Assembly (NCBI RefSeq): GCF_964355755.1 | Contig: NC_092671.1 | Location: forward strand, 15,314,001-15,378,000 | Length of the DNA stretch: 64,000 nucleotides | DNA from: Antedon mediterranea | Taxonomy: Eukaryota; Animalia; Echinodermata | Direction: 5' to 3' | Part shown: piece after piece, positions 22,973-52,244 of the stretch | Layout of the letters: the number at the start of each line of letters is the position of its first letter | Numbering within the stretch: the first letter of the stretch is position 1 | Made by a program: the position numbers and the translations under genes | The notes under the pieces: generated by a model | The model's input: the letters and a program-made list of their open reading frames with translations, nothing else | Database searches by the model: none | Told to the model about the DNA's origin: nothing

Positions 22973-23598
22973 CTTGGAAGTCCTCTCAGTCTCAATACTC
23001 AACCTATGAAAATGAAAGAAAATAATAAAGTAAGCAAGTTTGTAATTCTAGTACTCCATTTCAAATACAGCCCCTGTCCCCAAATTTGCTGGTCTCCCTA
23101 TATAGGTTTATCGCAAATACCTTGATTTCACGAGAAACGTCATTGCACAATGCATGATGATCACTCACACAATTTGCGATAAACCTTATTGTCTACTAAC
23201 TACTACTAGCTAGGTAGGGCCTGCCTACACTACACTATACCTCCTAGGTTAGTACTAGGCCTAGTAGTTCTACAGTACTACTACTAGGCCCTCTAGTACT
23301 AGCTAGAGTGAGAGTAGGCCTTGGCCTAAACTAAAGCCTAAGCCTACTGTACTAACTACTATGCCTCGCCTAGGCTAGGTATGGCCAGCTATATAGCCTA
23401 CTTTACTGTACTTACTAGGCTAGGCCTAGGCCTACTAACTAAAAGGCCTAGCCTAGGCCTAGGCCTAGCTAGCTAGCTAGGCTAGGCCTAGGCCTAACTA
23501 GGCCTAGCCTAGGCCTAGTACTAGTTTGAAACTATTTCAAATACTAATACTGTCTGTGCTCAGCTAACATATTAGGATGGTGATTATATTATGCTCAC

Positions 23599-23682
23599 CT
23601 GTGTTTATTTCCCTTACAATTATGTACAAATCTATAGTTTTGGGGCTCATTTTGTCACCTTCTTCTCTCTGTTTCGTGCATC
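23599..23682 (-). other. Probable first (5' UTR) exon of FASTKD1-A, abutting the transposon left end
   Basis: Strong donor ACAG|GTGAGC at 23599/23598; matching acceptor TAG|G at 23004/23003 just upstream of the ATG at 22972. The 5' boundary is unknown. Confidence 0.6.
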
Positions 23683-23820
23683 CGGTCAGTCTAATTACCG
23701 AAAACAACCGAAAACAACCGAAAACAACCGAAAACAACCATAAACAACTGAAAACAACCATAAACAACCGAAAACAAACCGAAAACAAAATAACAATATC
23801 TAAATACCGAAAACAAATTT
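23683..23820 (+). repeat. Left TIR built of 10-bp AACCGAAAAC units
   Basis: Direct reading; inverted counterpart at 41538-41695. Confidence 0.95.
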
Positions 23821-24519
23821 GATGCAGCTACTATATTGACCTCGCACGCCAAACAAATTTCTACAGTATATTTTTTAAATGTCGCCCTCTATTGATAGGT
23901 GTTTCTAAAGCCAACAAGACCGCGCGCGCAAAGCCAAGGAGATAGAGACCATACGAAATGGAAGTGTGCACAAAATTTAACTCAATATCGTACAAACTCA
24001 ATGATAACACCGTGCATTTACTTACAGAATCTACAATATGTTAGATATTTAATATATATGTTACATGAATCTTACGGAGACAAGGAATTGTCTGTAGTCG
24101 TAAGACCCTTTGAAAAATAAAACATTATCATAGAAAAAAACATGAAATAAGGTTTTAAAGATACAAGTTGGAAAGTTAAAGTATTCCTACATATAATATA
24201 AAAGAAACTACATAATAGTAGCCTAACACTAACACGCACCACGCATAATATATAAGCATTTTAATATATAAGCATTTTTAAATACTGTAATTCGATATAA
24301 TCACTTCTAAAATATTTTTTAGTATTTTATAACAATTTTAACAACTAGGGATGGTTCTCGAATACATAGTATAATTTCAGCGATTTCAAATGTACTTACC
24401 GCATGACAATAATACACCACTTCTACGACGTTTATTTGTGTATATTGTGTTTATATGTAAAACAGTTTGTGAAAAACACCTCTATTCGGTGCAAATCGTA
24501 AATTAGCAGGTCTGAAAAT

Positions 24520-24702
24520 AATACTAAAAAGTGGTCAAAAATTGGGACCGTAGTCCGGATTGCCTCCAAATGTAATGGAGTGGTCCTTGGCCACATATTT
24601 CTTGCAATAACTTTTTTGAGTAATTCTGCTAACAAACAGACAGACAATCAAATAAACAGACACACGCGATCGATTAGAGATACCTCCTTGGCGGAGGTAA
24701 AT
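24520..24702. mobile_element. Helitron2/Helentron-associated non-autonomous element end
   Basis: (ACAG/ACAA)n microsatellite followed by the terminal hairpin ACCTCCTTGGCGGAGGT; family assignment is from memory. Confidence 0.45.
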
Positions 24703-25207
24703 AATAAATAACTTTTAAACCAATCAATTAATTGTGATAGAAGTATTGTGGTATTTGACTGACTTTGACAAATCAAGAAAGACGCCAATAAAAAAATCCC
24801 TTTTATGTAATGCTGAAGTAATTTTATTTCTATCTACCCAATTAATAAAGAAAAGCCAGTAATGCCAAATTCATTCTGCATACGACTGATCAGGATGTCG
24901 TGATCTATCGTATCAAAAGGATAAAAAAAAAACTGCCAAAACTAGCATAATATATCACCCTTTATCATGTTTCATCAACATAATATATCACTTTTAACGC
25001 GATAGAGCAGTTTCCGTACTATGAGATTTATTATATTATTTATACCGACTGATATGTTTCATAAAGTAGACAGGAAATGGTTAGATACTGAATAATCTTA
25101 CCTAACGTATGAAGGTTAGAAACTGGGCGAAAATCTGAGTTTAATGTTGATTTGGTCGGGAACCTAAACCAATAATTTCGCAAATCAACATTAGTAGACA
25201 TTCGTAG

Positions 25208-25580
25208 GGAGTGAGTGGCCGAGCGGTTACGACAGTGGAACAGTAATTACGGTCTTACTGAAAAACAACTTTTAGTTGAGTTAAGTATCCGTGATTAAAT
25301 AAAGCTTATTATTATTATTATTATTATAGCCATAACATCGGCAGGGGTTCGAGGCTCACTCACTCCGTGGTTCTGGTGGTTAGAACGAGTCTTCTCGGAT
25401 AAGGACTATAAACCGTAGGTCCAGTGTACACATCTCGCTCGTGTGCACTTTAAAGAACCTAGTACGAGACGAGTAGGGGGTTACCCCGGTGTATTAGTAC
25501 ATTACAGCCACTGATCACCAACTGGGTCCTCTGGGAGACCAGTCTTTGACTGAAGAGGTTACCCAGTATAAATATAAATT
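25208..25580 (+). mobile_element. Full-length tRNA-derived Deu/Nin-domain SINE, interrupted by a LINE-like 3' tail (~25250-25326)
   Basis: A box TGGCCGAGCGG, B box GGTTCGAGGC, GGAGTGAG/CTCACTCC stem, Deu-like core and AT-rich tail. The insert ends in AATAAA plus (ATT)n. Confidence 0.8.
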
Positions 25581-25967
25581 CAATCGATTCTGTGTTTTAA
25601 AACTTTTATTTTTATTTAAAATGTATTAGGATAAAAATGGGCAAAACGGATATATTGCTACATTTAAAAATGGAGGTCAAATACACAGTACAAATATTTT
25701 GTATATAGCCCGATTTAAACAAATGACAGGAGAAAAACATAATATCTATTTGGGTATTTATTTCTAACTATACGTTGATTTGTTTACAAACTTTTACGAT
25801 TGCATGTTCATTAAATTCGTCATAACCATGCCAGGTTACTTTCCAGAGGTGAATGACGATATAATATTTTTACATTAAATGCATTGGCGATATTGTTGTT
25901 ACCTTTATTTTATGTACATCAAGGATTATGTGTTGCGCTGTATTATACATTTTTTTTTACTTTGATG

Positions 25968-25969
<2 letters not shown>

Positions 25970-26035
<66 letters not shown>
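25970..26035. repeat. (TA)n microsatellite
   Basis: Direct reading. Confidence 0.97.
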
Positions 26036-26036
<1 letters not shown>

Positions 26037-26119
26037 TGAGGACTAGTTGTGTTCCAACCGTACCACGCCGAGAATGTTAAATTGTCGTTATCCAATCGAG
26101 TTAAAGAACAATACCATGA

Positions 26120-26300
26120 AATGGTCTAATGGTTAGGGCAACTGCATATCAAGCAGACGGTCCGAGTTCGAGTCTCGGTTGGGTCGACTTTTTCTCATTC
26201 TCACAGATTTCCTCATCTTTATCATTTCAAAAATTAATTAAATAATTTTCAGTGTATCACCGGGCGGTTTGGAATTTATTTCTATGCCTGTTGTGTTTTT
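26120..26300 (+). mobile_element. tRNA-headed repeat (second SINE-like family); decayed copies at ~59915-60030 and ~60170-60245
   Basis: TGGTCTAATGGTTAGG..CTGCATATC..GTTCGAGTC followed by the shared body TTTTTCTCATTCTCA. Confidence 0.65.
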
Positions 26301-26589
26301 ATATTTATACAATTGTATTGCGAAGCACTGTGTAAATTATATATAAATAAATACTGTCAAATTACAGTGCTCATCGGAACATGATCTCATAAACGCGTCA
26401 TTGGCGAAAGTTCCGTATTTTTTAGTTGTATGAAAAAATGTCTCTGGCGGGATTCGAACCTGTATATACGTTTCATACAAAAATTGTAATTAATCACGGC
26501 AAACAATTCTACGTAGTTCCTCGGAAATCTGTCTTAAGGCCATAACTGACAGGCCTATGCAACTCATCGAATTAATTTACTAACTTATT

Positions 26590-26830
26590 TTACAGAATTG
26601 ATGCCGTCAAGAACTTGGCTGGGATGATGCAATACCTCGCACCATCCAATCCGAATATTGGTTAGATGAACTTAGAAGGCATGAAATATGTTACAAACTA
26701 CAACACAAAAAGTATGCGAGAGCGAATTACACCCTTTTTTAGATGCTATAATTAAGGGCCAGCGTTTCTGTAGTTGATGACACTAACTATCGATGAGGCA
26801 GCACCCATAGATAGTAATGAAAATAAGTCA
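26590..26830 (+). mobile_element. Possible BEL/Pao LTR-retrotransposon pol remnant
   Basis: Decayed translation ILQN*CRQELGWDDAIP resembles the Pao motif LQxLC..LGWDxxIP. Confidence 0.4.
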
Positions 26831-26949
26831 GTCTGAGATTTTCAACATGGGAGAACCTCTGGAAAACTATAGCTTGGGTACCAGGTCCTGAAATACAAGG
26901 CTCGACTGAGACAAATATTAAAACTACCAAGGAAGAAGAATGGATCCAT

Positions 26950-27070
26950 CAATATTCTATCTACCCAATTTAAAGAAAAGCCAGTAATGCCAAATTCCTT
27001 CTGCATACGACTGATCAGGATGTCGTGATCTATCGTATCAAAAGGATAAATAACCTGCAAAAACTAGCGT
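26950..27070 (-). mobile_element. CR1/L2-type LINE reverse transcriptase fragment; second copy at ~24828-24948
   Basis: FDTIDHDILISRMQKEFGITG..LNW matches the AFDTxDH RT motif. Confidence 0.7.
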
Positions 27071-28111
27071 TAACAAAATTATTGAACCAGTATGAATATG
27101 ATGTTTCAAAAGAGCACGTCATGAAGACCACAACATTTGAGAAATGTCTATTCCCACAATCAAATGCAATCACACACGTATAAAGCATGCTGTGTATTTC
27201 AGTTTCTTATAGATACGGTATCAGTAACTTGAACTAGTATATTATGGAGATACTCTGTGGAGATCGATAGTTCTATCAACTATGGTTGTTCATTTATTTG
27301 GTGCTCTTTAAGTATAGAATAGATAAAGATAAGCTAAAGCGTATCAAGCTCCAAATGGCGCGTTATACCTTAAAAAAAGCACCTCTGGTTGGTCTCCAAT
27401 TAACTGAGATCCATAACGCTCTTTGTATGAAATACTAAAGATGGAAGTGTAATTGTGAATCCAAATATATTTTCTCCTCTCTCCTTTTAAATGTCTAAAA
27501 TTTTAAGAAACTTAACTCTATAATGATAGATGAATGGAGAATTGAATTACAAAACAAATCGTTTGTATTATTAATAAGCTGTGTTTTCTGTTGATTTTAT
27601 TTAATACAATTTCACTATATTTCTTTATTCATTTTTGTACAGTAATGATCTACCCTATGTCCCTATGTATCGATTAAAATTGGTTGGGGTGTTGCGGAGG
27701 GTAGAGGATATTTTAGGGGTTGTTAGTTGTTTTTTGCCTTTATAATTTTCTGTATGTATATTGTTATATTTTGTATTGTTATTGTGAAGGATGCACGTGA
27801 ATTTATCGGCTACTATTCACTGTTTAAAAACACAGACGATTTATTGTTGACACTTGAGAATTTGTATAAGTTATTCATAAATCTAATTTTTTTACGAAAA
27901 AAGAACCTAATTTCACAACTAATTTTAGTGAATTTTCATATATTTATATTTAATCTCTATCGAACGGTGGGGCAGGGAATAGGCCTAATGGAGGAGGTAG
28001 GAGGGTGGGGATGAGCTATATTATAATGATGTAGGCATATGTATAATACCATTAAAATATACAATAGACACATTATAATGTCAACAACCTTATAATAAAA
28101 CAAATACTAAT

Positions 28112-29145
28112 GGAGAAAAACTCGAAAACAGAGACCCCCACTAAAACGTCTCATTATATTGGGGGTCTCTTTTTTTGAGATTTCCCGAGACCCCCTAATA
28201 TAATCCCTGTTTATTGAGAGTGTTGCAAATACCCACCAACGAGCTTGGTCATAAATTATTAAAACCCAACTTTTATCGCAAAAACCGTGAATTTATGTTT
28301 ATTTATTTATCAATTTATTTTTATTTTTTTAATTCATTTCTTTTTAAAGGTTCGCCCAACACAATATATTTGTCTTCATCCTCCAGTCTGCCTCAAAGTC
28401 TGACCTCATATCATTTTGTTATTGCATTGTACGTTATTATCTTTTATGCTTGTTAATAAAGGTTACGAAACTAGTGTCAGTTTTTGAAATAATCTCCCGC
28501 TTTTTAGCTTCTAACATGCATTTATACATCTTACTTAACTTCTAGGACGTCGACCTTGTATTCCAAAATGACAGTCTCTTCACACGCGTTCAAGAATTCA
28601 TCAATCTTCTTATCGTTGCGGCATGTTCTTTGATATCGGCATATCAGTTACCGTTTATTACTGATACGTCATTCTGTGATTTTGAGACGTTTTAGTGGGG
28701 ACCCCCTATATAACGTAATATTGACCTAATATTGAGACGTTTTAGTGGGGGTCTCTGTTTTCGAGTTTTTCTCGAAAACAGAGACCCCTATATAACGTAA
28801 TATTGACTTAATATTGAAACGTTTTAGTGGAGGTCTCTGTTTTCTAGAAAAACTCGAAAACTGAGACCCCCTATATAACGTAATATTGACTTAATATTAA
28901 GAAGTTTTAATGGGGGTATCTGTTTTCGAGTTTTTCTGGAAAACAGAGACCCCCTATGTAACGTAATATTGACTTAATATTGAGACGTTTTAATGGGGGT
29001 ATCTGTTTTCGAGTTTTTCTGGAAAACAGAGACCCCCTATATAACGTATTATTTAGACGTTTTAGTGGGGGTCTCTGTTTTCCAGATTTTCTCGAAAACA
29101 GAGACCCTGGGTCTCGGGTCTCTGGTCTCTGTTTTTGAGACACCC
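28112..29145. repeat. Foldback-like element: ~82-83-bp tandem units, each with an 18-bp-stem hairpin (28683-29145), and a truncated inverted arm (28112-28200)
   Basis: GGGGTCTCTGTTTTCGAG-TTTTT-CTCGAAAACAGAGACCCC occurs 5 times with variants; the array ends in the TIR-like GAGACACCC. Confidence 0.8.
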
Positions 29146-30587
29146 GTTTCGACCTATCTCTTAGTCTCTGGTCTCTGTGTTCGAAGAACCTTAGTAATTT
29201 TATCAAGATCATACAAAGGAGTTCCTTACATGTTTATTCTTGACGGTAACCTATTTTGCAATATGTCAGTGGAATAACTGGCATTTTATCGGAGTCGGAC
29301 GGTTTTGTCAAAATAGTGTTTGATATGGCGATAGCACCGGTTCCGTGTGCGGTTATTATCAAAGCAGCCTGTTGGTTTCCGATTTCTTAAAGATGGTCCC
29401 AAATATGAGAGCAGCTTTGGCAAAATGTGCATTGCGATTGGTCTAGAACTTTGACGGTGTTAGGCTTCAGAAAATAAGCCAATAAAAAAGACCTTCATGC
29501 AACTATGTAAAAAGCGTGGTTCTGCTGAAGTTTCTTTCCACTATTTAAAGCGATAAAAAAACACATCATACCTTTATTCTTGAATTCTCACTGGAGAAAA
29601 TCCATCTAAATCTTTATTTTTGTACAGTTCAGTTCAGTTGTACAACAGTTCAGTCTATTTTTACTTAACCGTTCGGTTCTGACGAGCACACAGTGGTAAG
29701 TCATTCATAATTATTTACAGTTCATTTTTTAATAGTTAATCATTATTCAGTGTATAAAGAATGCTTTAATTTAAATATCTACAACGGTATTCAAGTTATT
29801 TATTTGTGCGAATCGCAATTTTTCGCGTATAATTTTTACCCAAAAATCATCAAACTAATCATTTTGACTAATAATGATATAAAGAATTGAAAAACAATAA
29901 AGCCTAAGTTAAGCAATTTGATTTGTGTACTTGTTTTTTTTCTTTTTCTCTTTTGTGGCGCAAACACCACTTTTATTCACATTCATATTATCTCATATTA
30001 CATAAAATCGTATTATTTAACTTGTAAATGTCGTTACAGTTCATAAGTAACATTTTTACATATATGAATTCTGTATTACTCCTTTTTTCATTAATTTTCT
30101 TATATTTTGTTATACACTTGACAGGATCATCATTATCATCTATCCCGTTTTAAAATAGTTCACACATTTTCATTTGTTTGTTTTCATTTTACAACCCGGA
30201 TTATACAATATATTTATATACATGATAAAAATAAACAATAATAGCTCAGTACCACCAGTAACCCGTATCACTGTAATTCTTTTTCTGTTAATCGTATCAA
30301 ATTAGAAATTATATTATCATAATCTTATTTCTTAAAGCTACCCATTTTTCTATACTTTTTTCTTTATTGTTATATGTTTCACATTCAATGTTATATAACA
30401 TATTGCTTTTAAATGAATTCCATAAAGATTTACCGACTGGCTTATTTAGTGCAGATAACATTTTTATTCTATAAATAGTAAATGCTGCAAAAGTGTAAAT
30501 ATAATCTGATAAATATAATGTGTACTTGCTAATGATAGGACCTTACAATTGCTTTCAAACCAATTGTTCTTATTTTACTTTCAGAAT

Positions 30588-33500
30588 ATGTACAGACAAA
30601 AAAGGCAGCACAAAAAAACTAGACCTTGTTTAACTTGTTTTGATTGTGACAAGAAAAAAACGGGGAAATACTTTTGTGGTGTTTGTAAGTTTGCGTGCAA
30701 CAATGACAGTATATTTTGTGATTATTGCTTACGCTGGTTCCACATATTGTGCGAAAACTTAACTAAAGCAAACTTGCATAGCTTAGGTAACTCTCCTTTG
30801 CATTTCACTTGTTCCGAATGCTGTAGCCCTAATGGCAGTTTTGATTTTTTGGCCTCATTAGAGCGTATTGATTCAGCTACCAAAAACAATTACAATATAC
30901 TTGACATAGCGCAAAGTGAACGTTTATTTCTACGTAATCATCGCTTTAGTAAACCCCCGTTTACGATATCTCAACAGTATGTCATCGATGCTGTTTCTAC
31001 AAGTATAATGAACAAATGTGGAGGTGGGCGTTTAATCCCTGTATCTGTCGCTGGTGACGGTAGCTGCTTGTTTAATGCCGTAGCTGTTGCTTTGACTGGC
31101 AATGAAAACATTGCTACTGAACTTCGCGTAAGAACATTTGTTGATATGGTAGAAAAAGAAACATTCTACAAGGAACTGCACAAACATTCAAAAATTGCTT
31201 TAACCAGTCCTGATTACAATCTCGCTTGTTCAGATTGTAGTCGTGAAAGCGGTTATTCTTCAGCTTGGCAGATACAGGCGTTGTCTAGTGTTATAGGGCA
31301 AGAAATTATTTCTGTGTATCCTCCTTATAATGGCGTTACTGACAATGCACATCGCATATTGAATAGAAGTTTTTATCCTTGCGAAGAAACAGCTGACAGA
31401 CATCCGATTTTTATTATGTGGACTAGTACACTATTACCTTCTTCAAAGGGTACGTGGATTCCTAACCACTTTGTCCCGTTATTGGACAGTTCTTTAATAG
31501 ATGAGAGAGTGTGTTTACCCGAAATATTGTCATCTTGCTTGTCATCTACTTCGTATGACGACATTGGTCACAAGAAAGTAATCAAAAGGAAAGGTAAATT
31601 AGGCCTACTCTACTAATTTAGACAAATGGTTTCTTATTTATTTGTACAAATTTAAAAAAAATAAAATTTTAGGATAAGAATACACAAAACTTATCCGTAC
31701 GTAGTGTACGCAATAGATTGGTTCATTGTTATTTTTTATTGTAACGAAGTTATCTCAGAGGTGTGTTTATATTATTGACCGAGATAAATCTAAATTTTTA
31801 TAGTTCAAAAAAAGAAAAGGCGACCGAAAATGAAAGAACGAATCGCAACTATAGTACCCATATCATCTGATTCCGTTGACTCAACACCACAGGTTGATCC
31901 TACAGACTTTCCCTCCACTTCTGTTGATACACAACCTTTCCATAAACGGGATATGATTTCCCTATCTCCACTGTCCACGCCCAACAGCGACAACGTACCC
32001 ATGTCGATGACAACGCCCGACTTGAAAACCACAACAGATACGCAACATGCAAGAGGTAGTGTTTTGTTCTGTTATTTTTTTTTTAACAAAGACATGTTTT
32101 ATTTAATAAGTGTAGGCGTCTATAGAAAACTGAGATATCTGATTGTATCTACATCAAATACAATTGTGTGTTTGTACTTATCGATATGAATCTACATTTT
32201 TATAGTGCGAAAAAAGAAAACAAGGCGACCGAAGAAGAAGCAACGAATCGCAACCACAGTAACCATATCATCTGATTCCGTTGACTCAACACTTGATCCT
32301 ACAGACTTTCCCTCCACTTCTGTTGATAGACAACCTTTCCATAAACGTGATATGATTTCCATATCTCCACTCTCCACATCAAACAGCGACAACGGCAAAA
32401 AGACAGACACAAATGCCACGATGGCTAATTTAGAGGGCTATCCAGCTACCTCTTTTTTTAACCAATCTTCCAATATAGATTCTGATCTGATTTCATTATC
32501 ACACCCATTTTCTGACCCCAACAAGAACAGCAATGATCATGCAGACACCAATGAAAAGTTACTACCTAATCATAATGATGTATTGCATATGCCTATAACA
32601 GGAAAGCCTTCCGATAGTGTGATTTTCCAATCCCCAATTTGTAACCCCCACAGCGAAATCATAAAGGAAAAAAGCACCATAAAAACTATGCAACATGAAG
32701 GTAAGTGTTTTGTTCGTTTTGATCTTCGCATTACAAGATCTGTGTTAGAAAACACAAATTTTAGATATATCTAAGTTTTCTAGATCTAAAAAACTCAGAT
32801 ATTTGAGTTTCCTAGAATTATGAAATTTAAATAACAAGATCCGAGTTTCAATCTTCAAATATAAAAATCAAATCACATAATACAGTAAATCGTGTCATTA
32901 TTAATAAGAGGGTAGTGTTTAAAATACACCTATCATTGTAAGTACTGTTATTTGCAATATAGTACTGCGGTCAACCTGCATAAAATGCGCCTAAAATGTA
33001 TAACATGATATAGAACACTGTTCAATGTCTGATTGTTTATCATGTATGTTATTTACCTTTAAAAGGCAAAAGAAAAGCTCCCAGCAATAGCCTGAAAATA
33101 TAGGGGAATACATTTGTAGTTATGTATTGCATTATGGTTTGACAAATATTTTATATATTTTCAAAAAGGAAAACAGCAGAGGCGACACACTGTATTTTTC
33201 AAGATTGAAGATGTCGGTGATAATTCACCAATTATATTTTCTTCGTCCGAGTCTGAAGTTGATCCTACAGACTTTCCCTCCAATTCTGTTGATAGACAAC
33301 CTTTCCATAAACGGGATATGATTTCCATATCTCCACTGTCCACACCCAACAGCGACAACGTACCCATGTCGATGACAACGCCCGACTTGAAAACCACAAA
33401 AGATACGCAACATGCAGGAGGTAGTGTTTTGTTCTGTTTTTTTTTTTGTAAAAAATAAATGTTTTATTCAATAAGTGTAGGTGTCTATAGGAAACTGAGA

Positions 33501-36500
33501 TATCTGATTGTATCTAGATCAAATAACATTGTGTGTTTGTACTTATCGATATGAATCTACATTTTTATAGTACGAAAAAAGAAAACAAGGCGACCGAAGA
33601 AGAAGCAACGAATCGCAACCATAGCAACCATATCGTCTGATTCCGTTGACTCAACACCACAGGTTGATCCTACAGACTTTCCCTCCACTTCTGTTGATAC
33701 ACAACCTTTCCATAAACGGGATATGTTTTCCATATCTCCAATCTCCACACCAAACAGCGACAACGTACCCTTGTCGATGACAACGCCCGACTTGAAAACT
33801 ACAACAGCTACGCAACATGCAGGAGGTAGTGTTTTGTTCTGTTTTTTTTTTTTTTAACAAAGACATGTTTTATTTAATAAGTGTAGGTGTCTATAGAAAA
33901 CTGAGATATCTGATTGTATCTACATCAAATACAATTGTGTGTTTGTACTTATCGATATGAATCTACATTTTTATAGTGCGGAAAAAGAAAACAAGGCGAC
34001 CGAAGAAGAAGCAACGAATCGCAACCACAGTAACCATATCTTCTGATTCCGTTGACTCAACACTTGATCCTTCAGACTTTCTCTCCACTTCTGTTGATAG
34101 ACAACCTTTCCATAAATGTGATGTGATTTCCATATCTCCACTCTCCACATCAAACAGCGACAACGGCAAAAAGACAGACACTAATGCCACGATGGCTAAT
34201 TTTGAGGGCATTCCAGCTACCTCTTTTTTTAACCAATCTTCCAATATAGATTTTGATCATCAATTTTCTGACCCCAACAACGACAGCAGTGATCATGCAG
34301 ACACCAATGAAAAGTTACTACCTAATCGTAATGATGTATTGCATATGCCTATAACAGGAAAGCCTTCTGATAGTGTGATTTTCCAATCCCCAATTTGTAA
34401 CCCCCACAGCGAAATCATAAAGGAAAGAAGCACGTCGATGACAACGCCCGACTTGAAAACCACAAAAACTATGCAACATGAAGGTAAGTGTTTTGTTCGT
34501 TTTGATCTTCGCATTACAAGAATAGATCTGTGTTAGAAAACACAAATTTTAGATATATCTAAGTTTTCTAGATCTAAAAAACTCAGATATTTGAGTTTCC
34601 TATATTTATGAAATTTAAATAACAAGATCCGAGTTTCAAGCTTCAAATATAAAAATCAAATCACATAATACAGTAAGTCGTGTCATTGTTAATAAGAGGG
34701 TAGTGTTTAAAATACACCTATCATTGTAAGTACTCATTGTTATTTGCCAAAAATAGTACTGCGGTCAACCTGCATAAAATGCGGCTAAAATGTATATCAT
34801 GATATAGAACACGATTCAATGTCTGATTGTTTATCATGTATGTTATTTACCTTTAAAAAGCAAAGGAAAAGCTCCCAGCAATAGCCTGAAAATATAGGGG
34901 AATACATGTATAGTTATGCATTGCATTATGGTTTGACAAATATTTTATATATTTTCAAAAAGGAAAACACCAGAGGCGACACACTGTATTTTTCAAGATT
35001 GAAGATGTCGGCGATAATTCACCATTTATATTTTCTTCGTCCGAGTCTGAAGTTGATCCTACAGACTTTCCCTCCACTTCTGTTGATACACAACCTTTCC
35101 ATAAACGGGATATGATTTCCATATCTCCACTGTTCACACCAAATAGCGACAACGTACCCATGTCGATGACAACGCCCGACTTAAAAACCACGAAAGTAAC
35201 GAATCATGCAGGAGGTAGTGTTTTGATCTGTTGTTTTTTTTTTTAACAAAGTAATGTTTTATTCAATAAGTGTAGGTGTCTATAGGAAACTGAGATATCT
35301 GAATGTATCTAGATCATATAACATTGTGTGTTTTTACTTATCGATATGAATCTACATTTTATAGTGCGGAAAAAGAAAACAAGGCGACCGAAGAAGAAGC
35401 AACGAATCGCAACCATATCATCTGATTCCGTTGACTCAACACCACAGGTTGATCCTACAGACGTTCCCTCCACTTCTGTTGATAGACAACCTTTCCATAA
35501 ACGTGATATGATTTCCATATCTCCACGCTCCACACCAAACAGCGACAACAGCAAAAAGACAGACACAAATGCCACGATGGCTAATTTTAAGGGCATTCCA
35601 GCTACCTCTTTTTTTAGCCAATCTTCCGATATAGATTTTGATTTGATTTCATTATCACATCAATTTTCTGACTCCAACAACGACAGCAGTGATCATACAG
35701 ACACCAATGAAAAGTTACTACCTAATCGTAATGATGTATTGCATACGCCTATAACAGGAAGGCCTTCCGGCGATAGTGTGATTTTCCAATCCCCAATTTG
35801 TAACCCCCACAGCGAAATCATAAAGGAAAAAAGCACGTCGATGACAACGCCCGACTCGAAAACCACAAAAACTATGCAACATGAAAGTAAGTGTTTTGTT
35901 CGTTTTGATCTTCGCATTACAAGATCTGTGTTAGAAAACACAAGTTTTAAATATATCTAAGTTTCCTAGATCTAAAAAACTCAGATATTTGAGTTTCTTA
36001 AATTTATGATATTTCAATAACAAGATTCGAGTTTCATTATTCAAATAGAAAACTCAAATCACCAAATACAGTAAATCGTGTCATTATTAATAAGAGGGTA
36101 GTGTTTAAAATACACCTATCATTGTAAGTACTGTTATTTGCAATAGTACTGCGGTCAACCTGCATAAAATGCGGATAAAATGTATCATGATATAGAACAC
36201 GATTCAATGTCTGATTGTTTATCATGTACTGTATGTTATTTACCGTTAAAAAGCAAAAGAAAAGCTCCCAGCAATAGCATGAAAATATAGGGGAATACAT
36301 TTGTAAGTTATGTATTGCTTTATGGTTTGACAAATATTTATATATTTTTAAAAAGGAAAAAAACAGAGGGGACACACTGCATTTGTCAAGATTGAAGACG
36401 TCGGCGATAATTCACCAATTATATTTTCTTCGTCCGAGTCTGAAGTTGCTCTAAGTAATTCCGAAACACGATACAGTCACATAAACAATTCATTTAGTTC

Positions 36501-38817
36501 TGATCTGGAAAAGCAAGGTTCGTTATTTAATTTACACAACCTAATTGAAACACTATATTAATAAAATCTACATTATCTTTGTGTGACACAATATTCGAAA
36601 ACAAAATTCATTATCATTTCCAATATGCAATTAAAATTAAAATAATTCTGTTTATTTTTGTGGGAAATTGTGACGGCTGATATCTTTTATTTTCCAAATA
36701 AAACTATCTTTAGATGTATCGACTACGTTTTAGCGTGTTCTTAAGGTACAATTACATGTTACTAATATACTAATATTCTATTGTGAAAATATTACATATA
36801 AAATAGAAAATGCATGCATCATACATTTGCTCAAAAGTAACTATTGAAATAAAGTTTATAAACAGTGCCCGCAAAAAAGGAAACATGCCTATTACTGTTA
36901 TTAAATATTTTGAAATTTTCAATATGCTTCGTTTTAGGTGACCGAATGTCGTGCAAAAGGTTCACAAAGCGGTTGTTAAACAAAAAATTTGTTCAGGTGT
37001 CTGAACTATACCAAATCCTCATGAAAACATCAGAAAATGCAACATTCCCAGACATTCCGCAGGGTGTTAAAGAAAATATGTTATTTGTTGTCAACAATGA
37101 AGGCAATGTACAACAACGTTTTGGAGGTGGTCGTAGCTTCTTTCCTGATGATTGTGGTGTATGGGACTCGTCAAGTAGTAGTACTCCGAAGACACAGTTC
37201 ACAAGAGTAGCTGGAAGGCTTATCACCATTGTCTTTAAGTGTGATAGATTTTGCATTAAAAAAAACGGTACTTGGGTCCCGCTCGTACCACAACCGACTA
37301 ATATTATAACTTTGCATAGGTGTTATTGTAAATTAAAACGAGACAAAGGGTACAAAAAACGAGTGTCGTGGATAGAAAACGAAAACGAAAAAATGAACAA
37401 CTTCAATAGGCCTAAAGCAGTAGTTGAATACATTGGCAATTTTCCTTTTACCATTTCGTCACATGGTAATGACAGACATACACACACAGAATACGTACGT
37501 ACTCATCCGAAAGTTCTACGTGATGCTGAATGTAGACTTGTCCATTCCAAACCCAGGGATACTTACGCAGATATGGTTTTTTCTAACCCCGAAAGCGCAC
37601 CCAGAGATATGAAACAACTGAGAAATTTGAAATATAACCGATCAAAAAAACTCACCACAGGTAGTAGGTCTAATGTTGCCGATGATATACAAAATTTAAT
37701 AACCGAATTAACAAAACATGAATTTGTAAAAAAAGTCTTTGCTGTACCTAATCAGCCTCCTTGTGTAATTCTGTACACAAACAATCAAATTAATGACTTA
37801 CGAAGGTTTTGTTGTGGCAATATTTCTCAAAGTATACTAGGGATCGATAGGACTTTTAACTTGGGGGCTTGCTATTTAACGGTTACTGTTTTTAAAAACA
37901 CTCTATTGCTTAAAAAAGAAGCAAATGATCATCCCATTTTTGTCGGCCCGATGCTATTACACTGGGATGGTCGGTACAGCACGTATCTTGATTTCTTTAC
38001 ACATTTGCGTTGTCAGCTTGACAGTGACATAAACAATTCCGAAGTTGGTATGAGTTGTAATATGGTCATAGGTTCCGACGAAGAAAAGGCAATTTTGAAA
38101 GCTTTAAACTTTTCTTTCCCCAATTCGCGACACATATTGTGCACAAGGCATATCAAGCAAAATGCATCTCGTTACTTGCTTGAAAAGCAAGGAGCAAATA
38201 ATAAGTACCGACAAATAATACTAAACAAAATCTTTTCGCCGTCCGGATTACTTGGGAGTACAAACATTTCACAATTTGACAAACGTTCACTACAATTGGA
38301 AATAGATTTCCAAAAACAAGTTCCACTATTTGGAAATTATTTTAGAGATAAACTGTGCCCAACCTTAAAAGAAAAGGTTTTCAGACCCAATATTACCGAC
38401 CGAGTGATTCCGGACCGTTGGACAAACAACAACTGCGAAAGCATAAATCACATTCTAAAACTATCCATTAACTGGAAACCACAAAGGCTTCCAGATTTAG
38501 TACAAATTCTACACAAAATTGCGAAATTACAATATGCAGACGCCCGGCGTGCAATTCACGGACAAGGCAATTTTTACGTTATCCCTAGATTAAAGAAATA
38601 TACAGTGCCAAATTCGGTTTGGATAGGGAAATCTGAAGATGAAAAAAACAAATATGTTTTACGATTTTTGAAAATATCACTGAACAAAACAGTTGCAAAA
38701 ACAACAACATCTAAAGACGGGAAATTAATTATTCCTGCAACACCACAATGTGCTAAAAAACCAGGACAAAAAAAAAGAACCAGAGTTGCAAAAACCACAT
38801 CATTCAGTAAGAAATAA
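30588..38817 (+). CDS. PHD finger - OTU-like protease - repeated linker - MULE transposase fusion (~1860 aa); exons 30588-31593, 31804-32055, 32206-32700, 33169-33420, 33571-33825, 33977-34483, 34963-35214, 35365-35886, 36356-36517, 36938-38817
   Basis: Nine GT-AG introns, all phase 1; joined length 5583 nt with no stop. PHD C4HC3: CGVC..CDYC..WFHILC..CSEC. OTU-like motifs GDGSCLFNA and NHFVP. MULE triad GIDRTFN / GSDEEKA..CTRH / TNNNCESIN. Probable non-coding first exon ends at 29695 (G|GTAAGT). Confidence 0.8.
31780..36450 (+). repeat. Tandem exon-plus-intron duplications (offsets ~1.77 kb and ~1.39 kb) forming the linker
   Basis: Repeated RKKKTRRPKKKQR, DPTDFPSTSVD.QPFHKRDMIS and near-identical intron sequences. 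Confidence 0.95.
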
Positions 38818-41537
38818 GAGTTGTATCAAGACTTGAAAGAATTAATGGTGAAGATTTTACTTAGGCTATTTTATATTCACACTTATTTGAAACTCATAAT
38901 CTACAATAATTACACTCTTTTTATAATAATATTGTTTTGTATATGTTTTTAACTTAATATCATTTATATTAAATCAGTATATACTTGTATAATACAAAGA
39001 TTTGAATGTGAAAAAAATAGTACCGTATTTATTCGAATAAATTGAATAAATGCAACCCAACCCCTCTAATTAGGGCGACAATTACACAAACTAATTTTTA
39101 CTCTATTTAACACGTCGTGATGTAATTGTATTGTAGTTTTCATATTGAAGAGGTTCCGAGATATCTATTGAACCATTTTACACCAAAAAAAAAAATAAAA
39201 AGTGCATTAAGCTTATTCAATCGGTTTCCCTAAATTTTGTCGAAGAACCCCATTATCCACGCCATCAATGTGTCAAAAGCTAGTAATTTGATTAAATGTT
39301 CTCAGTTGTGTTTTATGTCGCACATTTAATAATTCCACATCTCGTACGTTTTACTATTACTTTAACAATGAAACGTTTATTATTAAAGGTAGGCCTACCT
39401 TAGTTTCTCGTGTTATTAATTCTGTTTGCACTTATTAAATCTATCTTTTTATATTAATTATTGTTAAAGTTAAGTCGCATTTTAAATATACTTATGTATT
39501 TACTCCAGTATTTGTCACAGTGTTAAATTTTTATTATTTAATAACGCATTTACTAGATAGCATTTACAGATTATTATTGCAATTTTAAATATGTTTATAT
39601 TGGTTTGTACATGGAGGTCCTCCATGGTTTGTATAACACTACTTCCTAAAAACATACGTTCTCTGTCTAACAATTTTTAAAAGCAATGCAATCGTATCCG
39701 ATTTAGATTGACAACTTAGCAGTTGTAAATATTCAGTTTTGCAATTAGCATTAAGTTATAAAATTTCTTTTTTCTTTTAAACTTTTGTTCGATAATTTGT
39801 ATTTTTTCTCCACATAGAATATAAATCACTTTGCCTTCAACAAACATGTGTATTAAGTTTGTTCTTTTTCAAAAAAAAATTCACAAATTGATATTTTATT
39901 GAGTTTCAACCTATACCTAAAAAAACATTAGATTTCAGTATGTTTTGTGTGTTTTTTTTTACAAATTAAATTTAGGTAGATGTTGATAATACATTTGATA
40001 TCTTGAATCAAGTTTGTATACCTCAAAAACATTATATTTAATGCCTTTCCTCTGGTCAAGAGACGAGATAAGCCCTTGACCAATGTTAGGACCAATCAAG
40101 GTGCTTTAAACAGTCCTGGCTTTGTTTGTATCAAACCTGTTAGTGGCGGTAATTATCGCTGTTGGTTTTTATTTTAATAAAATAAAAAATAAAAAAATAA
40201 AAAAGGAATTATGTTACAGATTTTCAGTTGTGTTCTCATGTATTATTTAAAACATGAAAAATGTTATTTATTTACTACACTATGTTATTTAAATTTAGTT
40301 TGTTGTAGTTAAACAAACATGGCTAGATGTTGATAATACATCTGATATCTTGAATCGAGTTTGTACCTCGAAAACAAAATGAAATTTAGTACTAAAAAGA
40401 TGTTACAGACTTGAGTTGTGTTCTCATGTTCTCTCAATATGATTAGGCCTAAGGTTAATAAAGATTTACAAGTTAATGAAACATGTTTGTGTTTTCACTT
40501 CCTGTCATCATTTTTGTCAGACTATTATATATATATATATATTTCAACGGAGAAAAACATTCATTAACTCATTAATCAGGGGAAACAACATTACGTTTAA
40601 TTGTTAAACAACTTAATCAAAATTAAGCTGTCGCTGCAAAAGACTTAAAATGAATCCTCTCTAAAACGCACACTGCTGGAATTAAGAATTTAACTTATTT
40701 AATAAATGTTTATATATTTTTCTTTTTTATTTTAACCTTGATTTTAATTTGTATTACAATACTTGTCTAGTCTAGTGGTGAATTGGGCATTACACCAGAA
40801 GGCTAGCTATACTCTTTCTTTCAAATTGATTTTTTAATGAAACAAGTACTTTGAACAAATTCATGCGTGAGCACATAGGCATCATTTTCTCTCTATTTGC
40901 ATTCAAATAAATTACAGTTATTCGTTTAGTGAACAAATAAATTCAAGAATCAACATTAAAATAACGTCAAATGATATGAGTTATGAGGTTCCATTTTTCA
41001 TGAATTTTACGCGCGAGAGTACCCATTTCCGGCCATCTAGCTAGGGGTGTCATGGGAGTAAATTAGCTTCGTCACAGGCCCCACCATGGTTCCAATACTT
41101 CTTATCATTTTATCAGAACTAAACTTACCCACCCACCCACAATGATCATCTCAGGCATTACAAATTTCTTAGTAGGCCTTCTAGCTGTTATATGGCCACC
41201 GAATAACAAAGTTTAATAAATAATAGACTATTTAATTAATTTTCAGTGGATTATTTGTTGGGTACTTGGGGGTATAGGCCTACTATAAAACAAAAAAACA
41301 CCTCTGACGTATTTAGCTTTGCTTTTTGCTTCTCAGTTTGAAATGAACATGTCATAGGGGAAAACTTTACCTTTGCTCCCCCCCCCCCCACATCTCCCTA
41401 TTTCAAAATCCTGGATCCGCCCCTGATTTTGGTGCCGAATACTCGTCAGATCCTGACAACCAAACCAAGGCTCACGTGTAATAACGCAGTGCTATCTACT
41501 TCAATATATCATTAATATAGAGGGCGACATAACAAAA

Positions 41538-41695
41538 AATTTGTTTTCGGTAATTAGATTTGTTTTAGTTTGTTTTCGGTTTGTTTTCGGTTGTTTAGGG
41601 TTGTTTCCGGTTGTTTTCGGTTGTTTTCGGTTATTTTCGGTTGTTTTCGGTTGTTTTCGGTTGTTTTCGGTTGTTTTCGGTAATTAGACTGACCC
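41538..41695 (-). repeat. Right TIR of the 18-kb element
   Basis: (TTGTTTTCGG)n followed by TAATTAGACTGACCC. Confidence 0.95.
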
Positions 41696-42916
41696 CGTGC
41701 ATCGCGTGCGATTAAAATAAAAAGAACTTTACAAATCGAAACGGTATTGCCAGACAACCATCTAAAAAAAGAAATACAATTTGAAAGCAAATATGATTAA
41801 TTTATTTATTACGATTATTATTTAATGATATAGTCATAAGAAATAAACAGATTATACCTAGTATAACCATGTTTATATAGGCTATACTATATTCTTAATT
41901 ATATTGTTGTTAATAAATAGAATTATAAAATATCCTGGCAAAATGTTCATGGAGGCTGACATATTGGATACCCCATGCCGCTTGCCGACCACGTTCCTTT
42001 TGAAAAGGAAGGAAGGCCAGGTAATAGTGTAATGGGCCTAGGCCTAAATTTGTTGACAAATGATAATAGGCTAAGTTAGTACGGATTTTAGTACATTACT
42101 TTAGTAGGGAATGTAGCCTAGCTAGGCCTAGGTCTAGCTAGGCTAGGCGTTTAATTATCTGTATGATATGAATATGTTTTTAATTTTATGTGTCATGTCA
42201 GACTTTGTTTTTTTTAGTCCTCTAGTAGTAGTTAGTACTACTACTAGGCCTACTACTACTAGGTAACATATAGAAGCTAGCTAAGCTAGACTATGGAATC
42301 CGATGCCTCTACTGGATCCTCTACTACCGTAGCTACTAGTACTAGGCCTAGGCCTATACTTTAGCCCCACTGCACTGGGCAAACAAGACATTTGACAATT
42401 GCATCAAAATATCTAGGCCAATGTTATTAGCCTAGGCCTAGGCCTATGCGCAATTTGTTTGAAATTGCACAAGGATATCCTTGGGCAATTTTTTGAACAC
42501 AAAGTAACACAAAGTCATCAGCTAAACTTGATCTGGTTGCACTAGGCAACTTTAGCTCATCATATAACACCCATCCATGCGGCGGTGAGAGAATCGCATC
42601 TTCCTAATTGTGCCGTCTAATTTATCTTCTCTTCTCTATTATAAAAACATAGGCCTAAATCTTTTTATTTATTTATGAAATTGTATTCTGTTAATTTATT
42701 TCAATAATATTATTATATTACATTTATTTATCAATTTAGGATATAAAGGTTTGCTGGGCGTACCTATCCACAGAGTTTAATTAATTTAATTGTTATATTA
42801 GATAAATTTTGTAGCACAATCCTCTATTAGAAATAATGGTTTATTATTATTTTACAGGAAAAAGGTGATCATGGTCTTACTGTAATTACAGAGTACACTG
42901 GTAAAGCATTAAAAAA

Positions 42917-45900
42917 ATGTTGTTTTGTAACAGGGCACGACCGTTTTGCCCTCCGTGGGGCTTTTTTTCACCAGAATCAACATTGTCACTTTTGAACAAG
43001 AAGAAGAATCTACTGTCTCAGAAATTAGCAAGTCAACTGCAGACTCGAAAGTATTACCAACAAAGATTGAAATCAGCTTTGAATACGTCATCAAGGAGGT
43101 CACTCAACTTTGCAAACAATCAATCAAGACATTTTATTCCTTGGAGAATCTTCTCTTTTTCAGATGCTGTGTCTGTAAAAGATGAAATTATTGCCGGGAA
43201 CACATTTGAAGACATTTTAAATGTTGTAGAGAAAAGAAGATCTTTGATGAACCCAATGCTAATCTCCGAAGCATTTATAAAACTCAGCAAGATAGTAGAA
43301 AACAATGACAACATTAAAGTTGATAATTTGTTTGAAGAAAATAAGAGTTTTGCAGATCTTTGCATTTTAGCAGAAAATCTTGTTTCAGAAACCAGCAATG
43401 ATGAGCTAATAGTTATCTTACACAGTCTGTATATAATATGTAGAGATGAGTGTTTGAGTCTATCAAATGTTGTTCAATCCGAGTGTCATAACCGTTTACA
43501 TTTGTTCAACCATAGTCAGTTGTCTTATGTAGCTAATTGGTTTCATAAGAGAAAACAGATTAAGAATCACACTTTGGGGCAGATTGCTGCAATTTACCAG
43601 AAAGAATTGTACCAGATAAATGATTTGGAAACCTTTGCACGATTGATGGTAGCTGTTATGCCAATATGTAGCCAAGAATTTGGTGAAGAGTCTTTGAAAC
43701 AAGCATTATGCCTCATAGAAACGTCAGATCCTGAGTTGGTTTCTGCTCAAACTGTTAAGCTCATTCTGCAAACACTAGTAGGCATGAAGAATTGCCATAC
43801 AGCGATTTTAAAGCATTGTGTTAACATACTTTTGCCACGGTTGATGAATTTGTCATTAAGTGATCTTGGCTCTATTCACCAGAATTTGTATTTCCTTGGA
43901 TTCAGTCACAAACAAATTAATTCATCTATACGTGCACGGTTTTTGAAAGAGCTTCCAGAAATTAAAGAAATCAAGGATATTATATGCGCAATGCAAGTTT
44001 TAGGACCAAGCCTATCTTCATTTGTTAGACATCGATTGGAACAAAAGCTTCTTGCAAATTCCCAAGATATATCTATAGAGTTCATACAAGGGGTTTGTAA
44101 TGGACTGCGTTTAATGAAGTACAATTTGGAATCGCCCATTATGAGAAAAATTACCAATATGATTATAGAATTCTCATCTGACCTCACAATATATGACCTA
44201 GTACGTGTATGCGAGTGCCTTAAGAATGTTGACATCTCACCCAAAGACAAAATATTTGACATTTTAACAAAAAGACTTTTGGAAATCTTAGAAACTGCCA
44301 TTACACCTGGACGAGTAAAAAATGTAGCATATTGTTTATCCCTCTTGCCGAGTGAGTCTCTAGATATAATGGTTATAGAACGACTAGAAAATATGTGGTC
44401 TTCTTTTCATCCTGGAGATATCCATCAAATTAAAAAAATATTAAATATTTTTTTGGAAAGAACATTTTTAAGTGGTTATGTAAAGAGTAGGTTACAGGCA
44501 TTTGTTTCAAAGGTTCACAGTTACTCTGAAGTGAACATCTGTAATTTTAAAAGCATAGTTTATCTGAACCAGCACCTTGACTATTTAATGAGATCAGGAG
44601 CTGAAAAAGACATTCTAGTGTACGCCATGGATCAGTACAGTAACTGTTTATATGGCTTGAGTCCAAAGATGGCAGTTCAGAGTATCAACAGGGTTGGAAA
44701 ATCGGGATATCTGCAGAAGGATGTCTTGGACAGAGCTGCTGAGGTCATTTCAGATAATCTGGAATGTATTTCGTTGAATCATATTTTAAACCTGTTAATA
44801 CCTTACTGTGTGTTTGACTACTTTCCTGCTTCTGTGCCCAAATTCGTTGACACTTGTGCTGAAATGATTCTACCATTTTTGGAAGTGCTATCATTAAATC
44901 ATCTTCTTCATCTTGCATACTTGCTGAGTTTAAATGGCAGTTTTCCAGAGCCTCTCATTAGAACAATTTTCAGTGTGGAATTTCTACTGAAGTTTGATAG
45001 ACAACAAATCAATTGTAGTAAGTCTTTATATTTAGTGTTAAAAAAAATCATAATGTTCCTAATTATGCTGGTGACTGGTTAACTTTTCCACACAAGGCCT
45101 TCCAACAAAACAGCATCCAACTAAAACAAGCCTTATAGGAAAGAACTGTTTTATGTTTTCCCATCCACACCAGGTGTCATTCTGCTTCAAAAATTAGACA
45201 TCCTGTCTAGTATAACTTGATGAAATGTTTGCCTATGAATTAACAGTGTAATAAATACTGAAAGTGTTTACTGTTATTTTATTTATGTATACTTTAGTTT
45301 CACCTAAGACGAAAGAGATCAACCTACATAGACTGTTTTTGGTGAATAGGTCAGTAGTACTGCAGTGCCCACAATACAACATTCCTTGGTTTCATCATGA
45401 TTATTCTGAAACATTTAGTCATCAAGGTAAGTATAGAAATTTATAAACCACCCACAAACTTTTAAACCACCCACTCCCTTCAAGTCATGTTCACACCGAG
45501 CCAAGTTTGTAAACCACTAACACCCTTTAAACCATGTTCACACCTAGCCAAGTTTGTAAACCACCCACTTTTATTTCTTCATCAATAAAATGTTCGTTTA
45601 CAATGCATTGTACTTGATTAATGTAATATTACAATACAATACAACTGACATTAAATAACTTTCAATACATCTTATATCTCCCCCTTTAAGCCATGTTCAC
45701 ATCTAGCCAAGAGTGTAAACCACCCACACCTAGCCCACCAATCTGAATTCATACCAAGCCAAACTAACTTGATGAAATGTTTCTATTTAAGAACACTTTA
45801 TAACCATTTTACATGAATTTTATCACAAGATCCTGCTTTATAGGTGCTTTTTTTATCTTAATATTATTCTCTGTAATTTTTTTTCAGTTTAGTTAATTAA

Positions 45901-51654: not shown

Positions 51655-52244
51655 CTACACAGAATCAGACAATTAATGATCGCCGGTTACCGTACTAAGG
51701 AGTATTCGCACACTGCGCATGCCCGCAGCCAAACCGATTTGGAATACATTGAGTAGTGATATTAAAATGTTTGTAATAAACTATCTGCTTATAAATATTT
51801 ATTAAAAAAATAAAATTCTTTTGAAATAAATTATTAAAAATAATATAATACTAGTAAGTATATATAATTGTGTATTGTACTACACATTAGGAAAACATTA
51901 TTGTGCATAACATGGACATGGCTGGTCATCGAATCTAATAATTCTTTCTTTATAAAAATACTACTATTGATTCAATAGAATTATTTCAATTAATAAATGT
52001 AATTTATTAGCAGTGAAATTAGTTAATAGTATTTGAAAAATTTGAACAGAATAATGTGAGAATAATCAATTCTTTTTATCACGTGAAATTTATCGGATTT
52101 TTAGTGACCTGGAAATAATTCCTAGAGAGGCTATTAATATTCATTTTTGTTTTGCATATGTAAATATATGTTAATTAAAGGAAGAACAAAAGTCATTCTG
52201 GTGTTTTTGTCCACTGTGTGTGATGATCGAGATGTAAATTTAGT
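51655..52244. promoter_or_regulatory. Divergent ATP5MC/JAZF1 promoter with an NRF1-like site TGCGCATGCCCG (51714-51725)
   Basis: Head-to-head genes; probable ATP5MC UTR-exon donor AG|GTATGA at 51655; near match to the NRF1 consensus YGCGCAYGCGCR. Confidence 0.55.

Follow-up and report, generated by a model that had tools for sequence, protein, structure and literature searches.

Do the PHD finger, OTU-like protease and Mutator transposase that lie in succession in the genome of Antedon mediterranea (Echinodermata) belong to one gene and, if so, is that gene carried by a mobile element? The DNA that raises this question, hereafter the window, comprises 64,000 nucleotides of contig NC_092671.1 (assembly GCF_964355755.1, positions 15,314,001 to 15,378,000 of the forward strand), for which a preliminary description had proposed a single hidden gene. 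Our results suggest that the window contains an intact, insertion-polymorphic Mutator-like element (MULE) of 18 kb, whose product would be tethered to active chromatin by its PHD finger and would remove ubiquitin through its OTU domain; to this full reading we assign a probability of about 0.6. Two of its components stand more firmly. That the element is a mobile MULE is close to certain, and it is very probable that one spliced mRNA gives rise to one fused protein.

The ends of the element, its target site duplication (TSD) and its mobility had escaped the preliminary description. Contigs from two of three public runs (X2 and X5, one sample) represent an empty site: 23674 is joined directly to 41696, 8 letters fit both sides and 18,021 bp are skipped. 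In run X1, from a different sample, the left end of the element is attached to another flank. Because of the empty site and this second flank, we take the element to be 18,013 bp long and insertion-polymorphic. Its boundaries, in window positions, are as follows.

23683-41695, plus strand: whole MULE, 18,013 bp, delimited by the empty site and the end sequences; its arms are mostly nested host repeats
23675-23682, plus strand: left TSD copy, 8 bp (CGTGCATC), from the empty-site joint and the sequence
41696-41703, plus strand: right TSD copy, 8 bp, from the empty-site joint and the sequence
23683-23820, plus strand: left terminal inverted repeat (TIR) of foldback type, a short unique tip followed by an array of a 10-bp unit with 7 exact copies
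41537-41695, minus strand: right TIR, with 9 exact 10-bp units; its terminal base is unpaired with the left end

The TIR cores measure about 138 bp and 159 bp and are identical at 154 of 162 aligned bases, with weaker similarity continuing on the left to about 23897. Exact copies of the 10-bp unit occur nowhere else in the window. A TSD of 8 bp is of the long kind that distinguishes MULEs, although it is among the shortest in the span of 8-11 bp, mostly 9, listed across MULE groups (PMC6446971, Table 1); a 9-bp duplication was rejected, as the flanking 9-mers do not match. The observed-to-expected CpG ratio is 0.86-1.05 in the element versus 0.42-0.43 in the flanking host exons.

The gene inside these ends, which had been described as nine phase-1 GT-AG introns joining a stop-free frame of 5583 nt, was rebuilt exactly. 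Its ten coding exons (30588-38817) encode 1860 amino acids and a stop with no internal stop codon, and all nine introns are GT-AG and in phase 1. The two longest open reading frames (ORFs), given earlier as 355 and 650 residues, are 365 and 651 residues from stop to stop.

30588-31593, 31804-32055, 32206-32700, 33169-33420 and 33571-33825, plus strand: coding exons 1-5 (gene model)
33977-34483, 34963-35214, 35365-35886, 36356-36517 and 36938-38817, plus strand: coding exons 6-10 (gene model)
30588-31593, plus strand: coding exon 1, residues 1-335, with PHD finger, helical connector and OTU domain
30675-30821, plus strand: PHD finger, residues 30-78 (Pfam, structure model)
30960-31484, plus strand: OTU domain, residues about 125-299, with D157, C160 and H294 (Pfam, structure model)
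31804-36517, plus strand: coding exons 2-9, residues 336-1234, a linker rich in Ser, Thr, Asp and Pro with exon-intron units in the order A-B-C-A-B-C-B-C'
36938-38817, plus strand: coding exon 10, residues 1235-1860, with a probable DNA-binding domain, the MULE DDE core and the stop
about 36961-37623, plus strand: probable WRKY/GCM1-type DNA-binding domain (structure model)
29628-29695, plus strand: candidate non-coding 5' exon, with donor GTAAGT at 29696 and acceptor at 30584 just 5' of the ATG (sequence only)
39036-39050, plus strand: candidate poly(A) signals, two AATAAA words at 39036 and 39045 (sequence)

Several properties of the locus make splicing into a single mRNA very likely. Every intron is closed in frame, with a stop 8-45 codons past its donor, and the introns have a GC content of 25-29% versus 38-45% in exons 1-9. 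Between paralogous copies, all six exonic indels are multiples of three as against none of ten intronic ones (Fisher p=1.2e-4). Weak acceptors (AAAAAG) precede exons 4, 7 and 9, each being the first AG past a branch-point-like word; alternative acceptors 8-35 nt deeper into exon 4 were rejected, as they change the frame. Among eight indel rows in the public contigs none falls in a coding exon, which we do not take as independent evidence because some rows may stem from repeat cross-mapping. Contigs of run X1, the one run supposed to be RNA, span the introns and contain no splice joints, a result uninformative on expression or splicing. A bacterial promoter scan gave chance-level counts, irrelevant to a eukaryotic host.

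Of the three domains named at the outset, the PHD finger (E=3.8e-5) and the OTU domain (residues 156-280, E=4.4e-5) each score just above the Pfam cut-off, whereas MULE falls slightly under it (E=4.9e-6, 27.3 bits against 27.6). The OTU Cys and His, the D-D-E residues and the CxxH motif, all previously reported, are indeed present, at C160/H294, D1538/D1615/E1735 and C1636/H1639, the last pair following the second Asp.

The suggestion of an OTU fold is borne out by structure prediction. The PHD-OTU model is confident (predicted local distance difference test, pLDDT, 86; predicted template modelling score, pTM, 0.85), and its OTU part matches OTUD3, VCPIP1, OTUD5, Cezanne and A20 with Z of 13-14.6, led by OTUD3 (Z 14.6, root-mean-square deviation 3.2, 132 residues aligned) and VCPIP1 (Z 14.4). 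VCPIP1, Cezanne, A20 and OTUD3 also fill the top Foldseek rows, and a profile comparison matches OTUD1 (E=1.6e-8). C160 is kept in 29/29 covering rows of the aligned relatives and H294 in 33/33, with the D/N-G-x-C loop present; in a wider set of relatives, the catalytic Cys and His are retained in 71/72 and 86/88. The OTU fold is real, and the domain is predicted to be an active deubiquitinase.

The PHD finger has a complete C4-H-C3 ligand set (C30, C33, C44, C47, H52, C55, C75 and C78) and two aromatic residues, Y28 and W50, whose positions we take to be those of the methyl-lysine cage of H3K4me-reading PHD fingers. In relatives an aromatic residue occupies the Y28 position in 14/16, and a Trp stands two residues before the zinc-binding His in 15/16. 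The closest PDB matches are Pps and Pygopus, whose PHD fingers read H3K4me, and the finger described here may likewise read H3K4me2/3. Three extra cysteines ahead of it (C14, C17 and C20; 30627-30647), where the model is of low confidence, possibly form a further metal site.

The transposase region is well conserved in its active site: among aligned relatives the D-D-E residues are kept in 54/56, 55/55 and 56/56 rows and the CxxH motif in 54-56 of 56, and 55 of 57 family members match Pfam MULE at E<=1. The structure model (pLDDT 89) finds its best match in the ISCth4 transposase (E 1.2e-7; Z 13.2), which we take to belong to IS256/Mutator. The likeness concerns the catalytic region; ISCth4 (PDB 6xg8/6xgx) is bacterial and shares 11-15% identity, and its matched range includes neither a PHD finger nor an OTU or GCM1-like domain. 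Catalysis by the DDE core very probably proceeds as in other MULEs. Residues 7-228 of the transposase model resemble SSR4, GCM, NAC and WOPR with middling Z of 6.1-7.3, which suggests that the N-terminal part of the transposase is a WRKY/GCM1-type DNA-binding domain; matches to CG-1 are weak and occur in 3/57 family members.

Between the OTU domain and the transposase lies a linker of about 935 residues built from tandem duplicates of exon plus intron, about 84-95% identical. Measured as in the relatives it reaches about 950 residues, some 8 times their median; their linkers, likewise rich in Ser, Asp, Glu, Pro and Thr, span 51-486 residues (median 114, n=79). Since each of the eight linker exons begins and ends in phase 1, any of them could be skipped without loss of the fusion. 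The linker repeats also contain five basic patches that resemble nuclear localization signals, and three regular-expression matches to hydrophobic-then-Ser/Asp motifs, which presumably resemble SUMO-interacting motifs.

Relatives place the gene in a widespread family. A protein search with the transposase exon returned 101 proteins of comparable length together with 3 that are longer, from hosts that include Haliotis, Pinctada, Mytilus, Crassostrea, Mercenaria, Batillaria, Oratosquilla, Cherax, Chionoecetes, Branchiostoma and Styela; two of the entries, labelled as bacterial metagenome-assembled genomes, are probably contamination. Among 106 proteins examined, 102 match the transposase, and 33 of the 36 with at least 200 residues before it carry the same OTU domain. 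For relatives found by the transposase alone the figure is 32/35, a count that leaves out P0001, which was found via the PHD-OTU exon. The OTU-transposase fusion is thus the family norm. Of the three exceptions, two have a match to Ulp1 instead, one above and one just under the Pfam cut-off; in these proteins (P0023 and P0033) a Ulp1-like domain sits at the place of the OTU. Such a swap, which has a parallel in Ginger1, points to removal of ubiquitin or SUMO as the selected job, and favours it over self-cleavage.

A wider set, in which OTU is favoured since the search profile included that domain, has it in 81/86 proteins, and 15 carry PHD, OTU and MULE as one protein in the order found here, which supports the single gene first proposed. 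PHD fingers are found in 13 of the 16 relatives with at least 100 residues before the OTU, three of the 13 having helped to build the PHD profile. In the listed part of a midpoint-rooted FastTree phylogeny the PHD-bearing proteins are spread over several branches, from which we draw no order of events. In P0002, P0003, P0004 and P0005 (Mytilus and others) an OTU domain of the same type has been placed on the C-terminal side of a different DDE transposase, with a repetitive tail beyond it; this OTU type is therefore common to different transposon groups.

How much of this is new? The preliminary description left novelty to a search, and the fusion proves not to be categorically new. The Hydra element MuDR-6_HM, the single member of MULE group 14, is catalogued with one ORF bearing an 'Ovarian Tumour Gene' motif, and is listed at 5,227 bp without TIR, TSD or zinc finger (PMC6446971, Table 1). 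Both elements have the OTU within the transposase ORF, and in the available part of the PMC13359780 supplement their DDE regions share, by eye, the motifs DRTFNLG, FFTHLR, LCxRHIKQN and TNNNxESxNHILK. MuDR-6_HM gave the only DRTFN match in that part, and the core is by eye nearer to it than to MuDR-1_Cgigas or Rehavkus. By these motifs, the A. mediterranea element appears to belong to the MuDR-6_HM clade. It differs from the MuDR-6_HM listing in its 18,013 bp, foldback-type TIRs, 8-bp TSD, N-terminal PHD finger, nine introns and linker of about 935 residues. What is added to MuDR-6_HM as listed is thus defined ends, a PHD finger, a polymorphic intact copy, breadth of the clade and an intron-built linker.

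Rehavkus, a MULE outgroup, is described in the accessible text of PMC6446971 as having a PHD finger, long TIRs and internal minisatellites. The PHD finger in the transposase and the long TIRs are shared with our element, whereas the Rehavkus TSD is 9 bp and no OTU is listed for Rehavkus in that text. Membership in Rehavkus was rejected on the 8-bp TSD and on a core that is, by eye, unlike the two Rehavkus DDE rows available.

Cargo of this kind is known on other transposons as well. Earlier papers report OTU, Ulp1 and PHD domains on Ginger1 and Mutator elements (PMC2836005), similar cargo on MULEs of Medicago, Ciona and C. elegans (PMC1702500), and Helitron cargo that includes VTD domains, proven deubiquitinases (PMC9741609); these papers already propose a role for ubiquitin or SUMO removal in transposition (PMC2836005, PMC9741609, PMC1702500). 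Ginger1 and Helitron/Helentron differ in that their transposase or helicase is not of the MULE type, and on Ginger1 and the Medicago MULE the cargo, as far as these sources describe it, is C-terminal, whereas here PHD and OTU form an N-terminal unit. Literature searches, which did not cover subscription journals, bioRxiv supplements or Repbase reports, returned no paper describing the PHD-OTU-MULE order.

In the mechanism that we propose, one spliced mRNA would yield the 1860-residue protein. The GCM1-like domain would in all likelihood bind the 10-bp repeats of the element ends, and the DDE core would cut and paste the element. The PHD finger might dock the transposase on H3K4-methylated, promoter-proximal chromatin, and the OTU domain, on its flexible tether, would strip ubiquitin from the transposition complex or neighbouring proteins. 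Its substrate might in the first place be the transposase itself, shielded in this way from ubiquitin-driven removal, or else histones or repair proteins that bear ubiquitin at the site.

A number of observations weigh against this account. Contigs of the element body have about 3-5 times the depth of the empty-site contig. Depth does not equal copy number, and the excess is no more than a hint that a few near-identical copies may exist. The position between two divergent genes (described below) might fit promoter targeting, which draws on one site. The PHD finger appears in only 15 of the 81 OTU-bearing proteins, most gene calls starting too near the OTU to include one; P0060 has a PHD finger without OTU and 5/86 relatives lack the OTU, so either module may be dispensable. 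The linker exons show no sign of amino-acid constraint (pN/pS 0.29-1.84 in five pairs with few changes), which, taken with the frame-keeping indels, suggests that selection holds the frame of the linker and not its sequence; we propose to read it as a flexible tether in which frame matters, and length and sequence do not. All splice junctions are predicted from the sequence. Finally, exon 10 has an in-frame Met (36946) upstream of the conserved transposase start, and AATAAA words lie within intron 9, so that separate products are conceivable.

A bolder version, in which a large and scarcely described invertebrate MULE clade would possess a rigid PHD-OTU reader-eraser that steers it to H3K4me3 promoters, strips ubiquitin and represents the active ancestor of vertnin's dead OTU, seems to us unlikely. 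Vertnin (VRTN) is an inactive OTU-like protein according to PMC10318531, and has a transposase-like helix-turn-helix according to PMC3024977; unlike vertnin, the OTU here retains its Cys and His. The vertebrate VRTN family is marked by a Vertnin_mid domain besides its inactive OTU and helix-turn-helix. The resemblance to vertnin noted in the preliminary description persists as a weak lead, through a vertnin cluster at Atlas rank 19 (score 0.79) and one relative automatically named 'Vertnin'.

The Met at 36946 and the AATAAA words, which occur in introns 1, 4 and 9, together with the weak acceptors of exons 4, 7 and 9, would suit a division of the gene by early polyadenylation and an internal promoter into a PHD-OTU helper and a stand-alone transposase, with the fused form minor or absent. 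We consider this improbable, given that relatives encode the domains as one protein, that the frame is held through all eight linker exons with matching phases at the last junction, and that AATAAA is frequent in AT-rich introns anyway.

Equally improbable is a PHD-OTU unit that mainly counters host silencing of the element DNA, for example by removing ubiquitin from H2A, instead of serving cut-and-paste transposition. Plant VANDAL MULEs encode anti-silencing proteins, as the available text of PMC6446971 reports. Tethering to the DNA-binding domain could place the OTU at the termini of the element, and the element, unlike the flanking host exons, is not depleted in CpG. Invertebrate methylation falls mainly on gene bodies in many species, and the high CpG may be explained by gene-body methylation or by young age; moreover, the closest folds (OTUD3, VCPIP1, A20 and Cezanne) are editors of polyubiquitin chains, although fold does not fix specificity.

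Self-processing, in which the OTU would be a polyprotein-processing protease that cuts PHD-OTU off the transposase within the linker, is likewise improbable. It has been proposed for OTU-bearing Medicago MULE transposases (PMC1702500, in the part available), viral OTU and papain-like enzymes are able to process polyproteins (PMC9741609, likewise), and a long low-complexity linker would be accessible. It sits poorly with the Ulp1-like domain in the OTU's position in two relatives, the same OTU type C-terminal on a different DDE transposase, and linker lengths that vary from 51 to about 950 residues. A domesticated vertnin-like host gene, or chance adjacency of a host PHD-OTU gene and a transposon, may be dismissed despite the auto-named relative and a host-like nine-intron structure, since both parts lie inside one inverted-repeat pair with a TSD and the whole 18 kb is gone in the empty allele, which rules out domestication.

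The preferred reading, an intact mobile MULE with a PHD-OTU reader-eraser, bears on a wider question, as proteases acting on ubiquitin or SUMO occur in several transposon groups that are unrelated to one another. Transposon OTU domains were stated in 2022 to be untested for activity (PMC9741609, available part), and our literature searches found no later activity test. The copy described here has what is missing from the Hydra element as catalogued, namely defined ends, a TSD, intact catalytic residues and signs of recent movement, which together make it possible to design a transposition assay that includes mutants of the OTU and the PHD finger. Should the reader-eraser reading be true, the intact copy would for the first time allow the reason why transposases carry deubiquitinases to be tested directly. 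A MULE group with a single catalogued member turns out to be widespread in molluscs, crustaceans, amphioxus and tunicates, and the linker offers a clean example of a transposase growing about 900 residues by symmetric phase-1 exon duplication, selected for frame only.

Exact matches to the TIR tip among metagenome_contigs numbered zero. In the public contigs the depth of the TIR bins (23683-23900 and 41500-41695) far exceeds that of the element body, and 23821-23868 is missing from several joints; depth and skipping joints together suggest many non-autonomous derivatives (miniature inverted-repeat transposable elements) with these ends. High-copy host repeats are nested in the element at about 29937-30507, 24892-26883 and 39500-40163, with depth peaks above 100 times the body, and one of them falls within the putative 5' untranslated region intron. 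Upstream of the gene, tandem copies of an 83-bp unit, with palindromes inside the array, occupy 28113-29107; a partial copy at 28113-28175 is inverted.

The element is inserted between two head-to-head host genes with FAST-kinase domains.

20879-23047, minus strand: large FAST-kinase-domain exon of a host gene pointing left, outside the element (Pfam FAST_1, E=4.3e-11)
42905-45082, plus strand: second FAST-kinase-domain exon, of a host gene pointing right, outside the element (Pfam FAST_1, E=6.4e-10)

These large exons, parts of two FASTKD-like paralogs, lie about 0.7 and 1.2 kb from the insertion and are separated by about 1.9 kb in the allele without the element. The insertion splits the shared upstream region of the pair and could affect both genes. 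Low-complexity AGGCCT/CTAG tracts are dense around it (23050-23682 and 41704-42860) and recur at about 52001-53000; AGGCCT reaches 17 and 7 per kb around the insertion, versus fewer than 1 over most of the window. The element may prefer such tracts, because the second flank, in run X1, also contains CTAGGCCTAG.

Elsewhere in the window, the first coding exon of a G-protein alpha subunit gene lies at 12959-13480 on the minus strand (weak Pfam G-alpha match). An ORF at 55559-56149 has no Pfam match and presumably resembles the tail of a LINE-type (long interspersed nuclear element) retroelement. A 22-bp purine-rich minisatellite occupies 46296-46879, a C2H2-finger exon 57056-57523 and a 49-bp tandem array 62780-63183.

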